Source: a virus (Duplodnaviria; Caudoviricetes). Taken from it: 64,000 nucleotides of DNA. The notes beneath the pieces are model-generated. The model was not told the origin of the DNA and searched no databases. It saw only the letters and a program-made list of their open reading frames with translations. This document shows positions 31,395-31,531 of the stretch, piece by piece. The stretch spans positions 69,532 to 133,531 of the IMG/VR virus record IMGVR_UViG_2706796482_000001. One strand, written 5' to 3'. A program made the translations under genes and the position numbers. How positions within the stretch are numbered: the stretch's first letter is position 1; each line of letters begins with the position of its first letter.

Positions 31395-31531
31395 GCCTGC
31401 GTCGTCTAAGTGGACTAAGGACGCCCGGTGTGATTTTGCTTCAAGATGCTGTGCACGGTGTCTTGCGGACTTCTAGTAGCGCTGCTAGAATGAGACACAG
31501 GGAAACAGAGGTTCGAATCCTCTCGCGGGCT
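31395..31531 (+). ncRNA. tRNA scaffold with two-hairpin insert replacing the anticodon loop
   Basis: GCCTGCG/CGCGGGC acceptor, D arm GTCT/GGAC, T arm AGAGG-TTCGAAT-CCTCT; insert hairpins CAAGATGCTGT/ACGGTGTCTTG and TTCTAGTAG/CTGCTAGAA. Confidence 0.75.

Follow-up and report, generated by a model that had tools for sequence, protein, structure and literature searches.

The window analysed here is a 64,000-nt stretch of phage DNA (positions 69,532 to 133,531 of IMG/VR record IMGVR_UViG_2706796482_000001) that makes up the right-hand 64 kb of a 133.5-kb genome; this genome belongs to a Streptomyces siphovirus and has direct terminal repeats. A 1-kb stretch used as a query was 99.9% identical to phage Targaryen (cluster BE; Stanwilliamsviridae, Samistivirus). 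The window contains 42 transfer RNA (tRNA) genes, which serve all 20 amino acids, and a complete transfer-messenger RNA (tmRNA) gene at positions 28418-28700 (RF00023, 96.5 bits). At positions 31395-31531 on the + strand lies the gene of a tRNA-like RNA, here named type A, which comprises 137 nt from G1 to the discriminator base U73; C74 follows at position 31532 and CCA is not encoded. On its 3' side the type A gene is followed by a conserved leader, the gene of a 95-aa protein, two small open reading frames (ORFs) and the genes of an Rnl1-type RNA ligase and of the polynucleotide kinase-phosphatase Pnkp. Covariance model R1 scored 114.6 bits on type A, the sole copy in the 133.5-kb genome. 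Type A apparently represents an undescribed phage family of real, conserved, tRNA-shaped non-coding RNAs.

In its unconstrained minimum-energy fold, type A forms a cloverleaf whose acceptor, D and T arms are intact and in which a 7-bp stem leads into a three-way junction with two hairpins. Both the three intact arms and a CCC.GTGT/ACAC.GGG stem entering such a junction had been described in a first-pass annotation of the window, and this fold bears them out. By sequence and covariation, the RNA has a tRNA-type body (acceptor, D and T arms with a G18G19/T-loop elbow), whose anticodon arm is replaced by a capped 7-bp stem.

The acceptor stem consists of 7 bp between positions 31395-31401 and 31524-31530, and the D arm (31404-31422) of a 4-bp stem with an 11-nt loop containing G18 and G19. 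The place of the anticodon stem is taken by the closing stem P1, CCC-G-GUGU / ACAC-A-GGG, formed by positions 31424-31431 with 31495-31502. Junction strand J1, GAUUUUG (31432-31438; 3-7 nt across the copies of the RNA), connects it to hairpin 1 (31439-31468), for which the fold gives 10 bp plus two outer pairs and a UGCA loop. Seen across the family, this hairpin has 13-14 layers, the tip G-UGCA-C (31451-31456) and a conserved 3' strand YUUG. Junction strand J2, AC (31469-31470; AC or C among the copies), leads to hairpin 2 (31471-31490), which has 8 bp and a GCGC loop, and junction strand J3, UGAG (31491-31494), leads back to P1. The variable loop has 4 nt, the T arm (31507-31523) reads AGAGG-UUCGAAU-CCUCU with a canonical loop, and the discriminator U is located at position 31531. 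All these elements are on the + strand.

Conservation and covariation of the type A RNA

Homologues were collected by BLAST against phage records, by scans of IMG/VR and of metagenomes and by look-ups of single records. This gave 20 distinct copies of 133-137 nt from the genera Samistivirus, Karimacvirus, Tomasvirus and Coruscantvirus and from uncultured contigs, and most of the homologues showed the identical architecture when folded individually. Pairing was evaluated on a 19-row alignment with a fixed structure, and column shuffles and partners slid by 1-3 columns served as controls. Standard pairs made up 92.6% of the cells (19 copies), compared with 79.3% in column shuffles, none of 500 of which was as high, and 42-51% with slid partners. 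Changes on both sides were found for 19 of the 34 pairs.

In the individual arms, 97.7% of the cells were paired in the acceptor stem, 98.7% in the D arm and 100% in both the T arm and hairpin 2, with double changes in 6 of 7, 3 of 4, 3 of 5 and 2 of 8 pairs, respectively; UUAG..CUAA in Wofford and Elmer is an example from hairpin 2. Independent gap-free counts of the layers concur with these statistics (acceptor stem 98%, double changes in 6 of 7 layers). Nearly all cells were paired in the five apical layers of hairpin 1, four of which showed double changes (C.A occurred in 2 of 19 copies). The closing stem P1 was misaligned by MAFFT and was scored per sequence instead. It consists of 3 bp, an irregularity of 0-2 nt and 4 bp in 12 of 12 lineages, with a different sequence each time, and its strands pair with a mean of -8.5 kcal/mol when cognate versus -4.7 kcal/mol when non-cognate. 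Three G.U pairs in hairpin 1 assign the structure to the + strand RNA.

Amid this covariation, the hairpin 1 tip, the hairpin 2 core CUAGUAGCGCUGCUAG with its U.G pair, the UGA of J3 and the last G of J1 are invariant. The hairpin 2 loop, GCRC, reads GCGC except in Tomas, which has GCAC. Invariant unpaired parts beside covarying stems are the usual signature of a recognition surface and may be read as such here. The variation in length and the pairwise compensatory changes indicate that type A is a non-protein-coding RNA.

Type A could also be the remains of a tRNA gene that was disrupted by an insertion and lost its function; tRNA finders make no call on it and some relatives lack it. The first-pass annotation had itself named a recent, unconserved disruption as the finding that would overturn its reading, and had proposed a comparison of the insert among homologues as a check. 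That comparison, carried out on the 20 copies, found the insert conserved and covarying. Compensatory changes occur in all helices, those of the insert included, the motifs are invariant across four phage genera and metagenomes, and the length is kept at 133-137 nt. In our view the covariation refutes a dead tRNA gene, to which we attach practically no credence.

The module in place of the anticodon loop

Type A shows the hallmarks of tRNA in its 7-bp acceptor stem, in the G18G19 of its D arm and in the UUCRANU loop of its T arm, and none of its lineages has the anticodon arm of a decoding tRNA (5-bp stem, 7-nt loop, U33, purine 37). With a structured two-hairpin module instead of an anticodon loop, the RNA cannot read codons. 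ARAGORN made no call on the element and Rfam gave no match at the gathering threshold; at E up to 10, only the T arm matched tRNA RF00005 (14 bits, E = 5.7, gathering score 29 bits). No clear tRNA parent of the type A body was found in the window; the best model score on a real tRNA was 29 bits. From its architecture and conservation, type A is very probably a functional, stable, non-decoding tRNA-like RNA.

A decoding tRNA might nevertheless arise by splicing, as the first-pass annotation had suggested, if a nuclease excised the insert and Pnkp and Rnl1 rejoined the halves. The presence of the Rnl1 and Pnkp genes 0.8-2.5 kb downstream and the tRNA grade of the acceptor, D and T arms are consistent with this, and ARAGORN, when forced to permit introns, returned a 'tRNA-Pyl(cta)' with a 43-nt intron. 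This model was rejected, because it severs conserved hairpins and produces a pseudo variable arm of 23 nt. No contiguous excision restores a 5-bp stem and 7-nt loop with U33, purine 37 and a conserved anticodon, and the idea of a spliced precursor is thus unsupported. P1 always has 7 bp (3+4) with a mid-stem irregularity and not 5 bp, and the junction strands are lineage-specific, with no conserved 7-nt loop, U33, R37 or anticodon. Selection is seen on the insert, in its invariant tips and covarying stems, and not on the putative exon junctions.

The known splicing signals are also absent from type A. It has no bulge-helix-bulge (3-nt bulge, 4-bp helix, 3-nt bulge), the irregularity of P1 being 0-2 nt and symmetric or single-sided, and no group I core (P3-P9, at least 200 nt). 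No intron family matched at E up to 10 except for an 11-bit chance match outside the element. The module comprises 63 nt and is, as had been stated in the first pass, too short for a group I intron. Type A therefore resembles intron-containing pre-tRNAs (group I; archaeal bulge-helix-bulge) in carrying extra RNA at the anticodon region of a tRNA-shaped transcript, but differs from them in the size of this module and in lacking a group I core, a bulge-helix-bulge and a restorable anticodon loop. All 20 amino acids are already covered by the 42 tRNAs, and we consider excision and rejoining of type A highly improbable.

Aminoacylation followed by action on the ribosome or elsewhere in the aminoacyl-tRNA pathway, in the manner of tmRNA, has scarcely better prospects. 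The intact 7-bp acceptor stem, the T arm and the C74 signature would suit it, and the phage also carries a tmRNA. Like the tRNA-like domain of tmRNA, which is matured by RNase P, type A has an acceptor stem and a T arm but no anticodon, and other RNA replaces the anticodon side. However, G3.U70 is missing (the pair 3-70 is C-G in 15 copies, G-C in two and U.G in two), as are the tag reading frame, the pseudoknots and a long variable arm; the D arm is complete, the discriminator varies and RF00023 does not match type A. In addition, the complete tmRNA of the phage is already encoded 5' of type A.

The first-pass annotation had alternatively proposed a natural tRNA-scaffolded aptamer or decoy. 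A scaffolded RNA or a decoy fits the architecture; the aptamer part fared less well. A three-way junction that binds a small molecule on a tRNA scaffold, similar to a riboswitch, would account for a conserved junction core that bears two hairpins in roughly parallel orientation. The hairpin 1 tip GUGC could pair with the hairpin 2 loop GCRC, and the sole natural change, which makes GCAC of GCGC in Tomas, would put U-A in place of a U.G pair. On the other hand, this is only one informative substitution for a loop-loop contact, the loops have just 4 nt in the most stable folds, Rfam riboswitch families gave no match at E up to 10, and there is no expression platform. A small-molecule aptamer is therefore very unlikely. 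Kissing of the two hairpins as such fits the Tomas variant, and the evidence is too thin to claim it.

Type A matched none of the Rfam ribozyme families. The hammerhead core (CUGANGA, GAA, UH site) is absent, the junction strands reading ..UNG, AC/C and UGAN. A reading of the palindromic tips as restriction sites was also discarded, for such sites are not avoided in the window (GTGCAC, 11 seen and 15 expected; AGCGCT, 22 seen and 15 expected).

Promoter, maturation signals and neighbouring genes

Type A is preceded by a promoter at positions 31350-31379 (+), which consists of TTGACA (31350-31355), an 18-nt spacer and TAGACT (31374-31379) and matches the consensus at 10 of 12 positions. It is bracketed by an inverted repeat, TGACAGC/GCTGTCA (31351-31357 and 31381-31387), which is a possible operator. 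Two sequence variants of the promoter are conserved among relatives, and each has an inverted repeat of its own. Promoters of the class TTGACA-N16-19-TA(G/T)(A/G)CT occur nine times in the window, compared with 0.14 expected, and eight of these nine sites are on the + strand in the tRNA/RNA-repair region (17070-35307, +). The promoter that the first-pass annotation had assigned to type A alone is thus supported here by consensus and enrichment, but it is not universal, as the RNA lies 2-5 nt behind a tRNA-like gene in Mandalore and in the metagenome locus L051. In Peebs, EGole and NootNoot, a second tRNA-like RNA follows 11 nt after type A. Judged by their spacings, these are tRNA-polycistron arrangements of the kind that RNase P resolves.

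The 3' end of type A corresponds to that of the tRNA genes of the phage. C74 without the full CCA was found in 39 of the 42 true tRNA genes of the window, and 18 of the 20 type A copies also have C74, suggesting that the RNA matures as a tRNA does. The phage does not encode a CCA-adding enzyme (PF01743), so its tRNA 3' ends must be completed by the host enzyme.

Downstream of type A, the conserved leader (31571-31606, +) contains a mini-ORF, MIYDPG-stop (31571-31591), and a hairpin (31587-31606). The mini-ORF has a strong Shine-Dalgarno sequence and its stop codon lies inside the 9-bp hairpin; relatives encode MIINYDPG-stop or MKIYEPG-stop. The leader precedes the gene of the 95-aa basic protein (31626-31913, +; PHROG 12074) and may act as its translational attenuator. 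This protein has an invariant C-x7-H...C-x2-C pattern (invariant W-C-K, H and C-x2-C), is probably a zinc finger and is confined to BE-/BK-like Streptomyces phages.

The Rnl1-type RNA ligase gene (32373-33473, +; Pfam RNA_lig_T4_1, E = 1.6e-16) has its own promoter at 32202, and the Pnkp gene (34020-34919, +; Pfam HAD_PNKP, E = 5e-52, and AAA_33) has one at 33964. The first-pass annotation had placed type A upstream of the ligase. Rnl1 is indeed encoded downstream, but its gene starts 840 nt 3' of type A, beyond three small ORFs, and the link was overstated in view of the separate promoters of both repair genes. Type A is accordingly a neighbour of the repair genes and does not head their transcription unit.

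At this cassette site, some relatives carry only type A, some only type B and some both in tandem, and Braelyn carries neither. Type B is a 129-nt RNA unrelated to type A, with a tRNA acceptor stem, a T arm and three internal hairpins, that occurs at the type A locus as a replacement or 11 nt behind type A. Copies are located at L001:655-783 (Mildred21), L008:696-824, L011:694-822, L012:696-824, L013:655-783, L015:651-778, L016:651-779 and L054:444-572, and only Mildred21 has an annotation for it ('tRNA-OTHER'). In Braelyn (L017, ~540-640), a deletion runs from the T loop of tRNA-Ala(ggc) to that of the type B RNA. It removed a 143-aa gene and tRNA-like RNAs and left a chimeric tRNA-like remnant.

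This locus bears on the question of whether type A acts in cis, as a tRNA-shaped 5' part of the downstream operon, through which RNase P would process the mRNA of the 95-aa protein and of the genes behind it, or through which this mRNA would be stabilized or regulated. No terminator separates type A from the next gene, the leader with its mini-ORF and hairpin is conserved 3' of it, and there is the possible operator at the promoter. Yet the leader and the 95-aa gene are unchanged behind type A, type B, both or neither (Braelyn), a HIT hydrolase gene intervenes between type A and the leader in Evy, Tomas and Anedea, and the invariant loop tips favour recognition in trans. Action in cis is hence improbable, if slightly less so than the aptamer or tmRNA-like roles. 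The HIT gene is directly 3' of type A in Evy, Tomas, Anedea, L050, L056 and probably Mandalore; the genome studied here has none. In Evy, the annotated HIT coding sequence (CDS; L007:691-1152) overlaps the type A gene (L007:656-792), whereas in Tomas and Anedea it begins beyond the RNA. As the Evy CDS begins inside the type A gene, its start was probably mis-called.

BK-cluster phages also have the 95-aa protein and the synteny with the ligase, but no type A RNA. Homologues of the 95-aa gene were found at L066:3001-3297, L067:3001-3303 and L068:3001-3294. In Annadreamy and Moab, an Rnl1 RNA ligase gene lies ~2 kb 3' of the homologue; none was called in the Comrade locus fetched. Annadreamy (cluster BK) has 600 nt without a called gene 5' of the homologue (L066:2400-3000), in which neither an Rfam match nor a tRNA was detected. 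This stretch contains two good promoters and may be another RNA gene.

Relation to Y RNAs and possible role of type A

The tRNA region of the phage also contains a gene for a 549-aa Ro60/TROVE protein, an Rsr orthologue (13551-15200, +; PF05731, 99 bits). The family was found in all five relatives tested (Coruscant, Tomas, Naboo, Mandalore and Braelyn). Bacterial Y RNAs are tRNA mimics, present in several copies per genome and often encoded beside RNA-repair genes (PMC4201824; PMC7824862). Among them, YrlA is the tRNA mimic that partners bacterial and mycobacteriophage Ro60; it has a closed acceptor stem and a GNCGAAN0-1G motif, the putative Ro60 contact, and it is almost always encoded on the same strand as Ro60 and no more than ~4 kb from the Ro60 gene (PMC4201824). 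Between its tRNA-like module and a second module runs a long, kinked stem of the anticodon type (bioRxiv 10.1101/312249). The YrlA of M. smegmatis is cleaved by RNase P and receives CCA.

Type A and YrlA have much in common. Both consist of a tRNA-like module, with conserved T and D arms in type A too, a long irregular anticodon-type stem and a second module without an anticodon loop. Both occur in genomes that encode Ro60 and RNA-repair enzymes, and tRNA-type ends are not foreign to the YrlA family, as M. smegmatis YrlA illustrates. In contrast to YrlA, which has a closed acceptor stem and its ends in the Ro-binding stem, the acceptor stem of type A is open and holds the ends; the arms follow the tRNA order and not the YrlA order T - AS - D (AS, acceptor stem). 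The second module of type A is a closed three-way junction with two hairpins. In the four genomes scanned, no GNCGAAN0-1G motif occurs 5' of the T arm of type A, and none was seen in the other type A sequences inspected; the type A gene is on the same strand as the Ro60 gene, 16.2 kb downstream of it. Lacking the motif and located 16 kb from Ro60, type A falls outside YrlA.

Two RNAs of the window correspond better to YrlA. A candidate YrlA of canonical topology (~12667-12790, +) contains GUCGAAAG, which conforms to GNCGAAN0-1G, at 12674-12681, a terminal stem UGUGGGU/AUCCACA and a T arm AUAGG-UUCGAAU-CCUAU (12716-12732), and is conserved in 47 phage records. It begins right behind tRNA-Asp and lies 0.76 kb upstream of the Ro60 gene; phage records annotate the locus as 'hypothetical protein' and, in two cases, as 'tRNA-Ser'. 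The other, type C, is an oversized tRNA-like RNA of 126 nt (18418-18543, +; Rfam tRNA, 33 bits), in which an acceptor stem, a D arm and a 5-bp hairpin with the 5-nt loop AAAUG are followed by GUCGAAAG (18455-18462) and, after a variable hairpin, by the conserved stretch UAGUAGAUAWCAGAGUAGCA and then a T arm. This RNA can be read as a YrlA whose ends are of the tRNA type; it is conserved in 80 BE phage records, of which only Mildred21 annotates it, with the matching part called tRNA-Tyr. Both candidates are within 4 kb of the Ro60 gene.

It is against this background that type A as a Y RNA in the strict sense has to be judged, that is, as an RNA whose three-way junction binds the phage Ro60 and tethers it to a tRNA-binding effector, as is thought for YrlA. 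The presence of Ro60 in the phage and in every relative tested, the tRNA mimicry and repair-gene neighbourhoods of bacterial Y RNAs and the shared architecture speak for it, as does the finding that Coruscant and Tomas have Ro60 and type A, while BLAST gave no type C there. Against this stand the missing motif, the distance, the ends outside any Ro-binding stem and the two motif-bearing alternatives, so that a strict Y RNA seems rather unlikely. The phage Ro60 is still the leading single candidate for a partner of type A, albeit one that we would put forward with considerable reserve. Type A is, on the best reading, built like a Y RNA, with YrlA and T4 RNA C as its closest precedents.

T4 RNA C (species 1, 139 nt) and RNA D (species 2), the function of which is still without an answer (PMC9697503), are likewise phage-encoded, located in a tRNA gene region and of the same size class as type A. 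RNA C is sited at the end of the T4 tRNA cluster, and in its fold a terminal stem and a canonical T arm (CCGGG-UUCGAAU-CCCGG) occur together with two long internal hairpins. It shows no similarity to type A in sequence or model (R1 scored 9.8 bits on rnaC). A clear D arm is missing from RNA C, and no anticodon-type stem encloses its hairpins; the fold of rnaD lacks a T arm. The engineered 'tRNA scaffold' RNAs attributed to Ponchon and Dardel (2007) reportedly carry an RNA of interest in place of the anticodon stem-loop and are said to be correctly processed and highly stable. Their topology is the same, with the cargo at the anticodon stem of an intact tRNA, but type A is natural, conserved and under selection and would be the natural counterpart of this laboratory scaffold for RNA expression.

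Type A would be transcribed from its sigma-70/HrdB-type promoter, and in some relatives within a tRNA polycistron. RNase P would cut its 5' end, and a host enzyme would complete the trimmed 3' end to CCA, as for the phage tRNAs. The tRNA body would provide maturation and stability and probably a second binding face, while a protein or RNA partner would be bound specifically by the three-way junction with its invariant tips and strands. Type A could thereby serve as an adaptor, tether or decoy in the tRNA/RNA-damage toolkit, which comprises Ro60, Y-RNA-like RNAs, Rnl1, Pnkp and, in some relatives, HIT. Taken as a whole, we lean slightly towards a trans-acting, non-decoding, two-module tRNA mimic with such a role; the more specific statement that type A works as an adaptor or decoy is plausible, but we would not yet favour it over its negation. 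A more far-reaching version, which we regard as doubtful, is a natural tRNA-scaffolded effector whose body would see to its processing and stability and admit it to the tRNA-binding machinery, and whose junction would capture a specific host or phage protein. Such an effector might neutralize a tRNA-targeting immune effector or tether Ro60, Rnl1 or Pnkp to damaged tRNAs.

Several observations weigh against the main reading of type A, that of a trans-acting tRNA mimic. The stability of the single-sequence fold does not differ significantly from shuffles (z = -1.4); the single sequence thus proves little, and it is the comparative evidence that carries the case beyond chance. We infer the processing, ends, CCA addition and stability of the RNA from its gene. 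A search of public sequencing runs listed no RNA run with the type A sequence, and four runs that were examined gave only metagenome contigs, which cover the neighbouring genes too and so carry no information on transcripts, ends or splicing. The discriminator base is A, U or C among the copies, so no single tRNA identity is kept. As Rnl1 and Pnkp have promoters of their own, the gene neighbourhood is weak evidence for a functional link, and Braelyn-type phages without type A indicate that it is dispensable in the laboratory host. For Ro60 in particular, the missing motif, the unmatched YrlA arm order, the 16.2 kb between the genes and the two better Y-RNA candidates point the same way.

If the effector version is true, types A, B and C would be a small arsenal of interchangeable tRNA-shaped adaptor RNAs in cluster BE phages. 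They would constitute a previously undescribed class of phage counter-defence/repair RNA and offer a way into the puzzle that T4 RNA C and RNA D have posed for 50 years. The known tRNA mimics are tmRNA, YrlA, viral tRNA-like structures and T4 RNA C, and the purpose of the tRNA-like part is still a question for the Y-RNA-type and T4-type RNAs. The type A system is tractable in this respect, with clean covariation, an invariant surface and presence/absence and swap variants at one locus. The host phages are easily grown and also encode Ro60, Y-RNA-like RNAs, Rnl1 and Pnkp.

Full-text literature searches yielded no description of the type A RNA, and the genome papers on cluster BE mention tRNAs and tmRNA only. 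For mimicry of a host RNA, one genome per species of 185,579 bacteria and archaea was scanned with the exact motifs (hairpin 1 tip and hairpin 2 core), which gave no match, and the scans of IMG/VR and metagenomes found type A only on BE-like phage contigs. Type A is annotated in none of ~48 GenBank/RefSeq phage records, which is of practical importance for these deposited genomes. Moreover, tRNA-like genes at 5706-5782, 17974-18050, 25753-25824 and 25925-25995 (+) were detected by Rfam or by our own model and missed by ARAGORN, so that the annotated tRNA count of these phages is probably too low.

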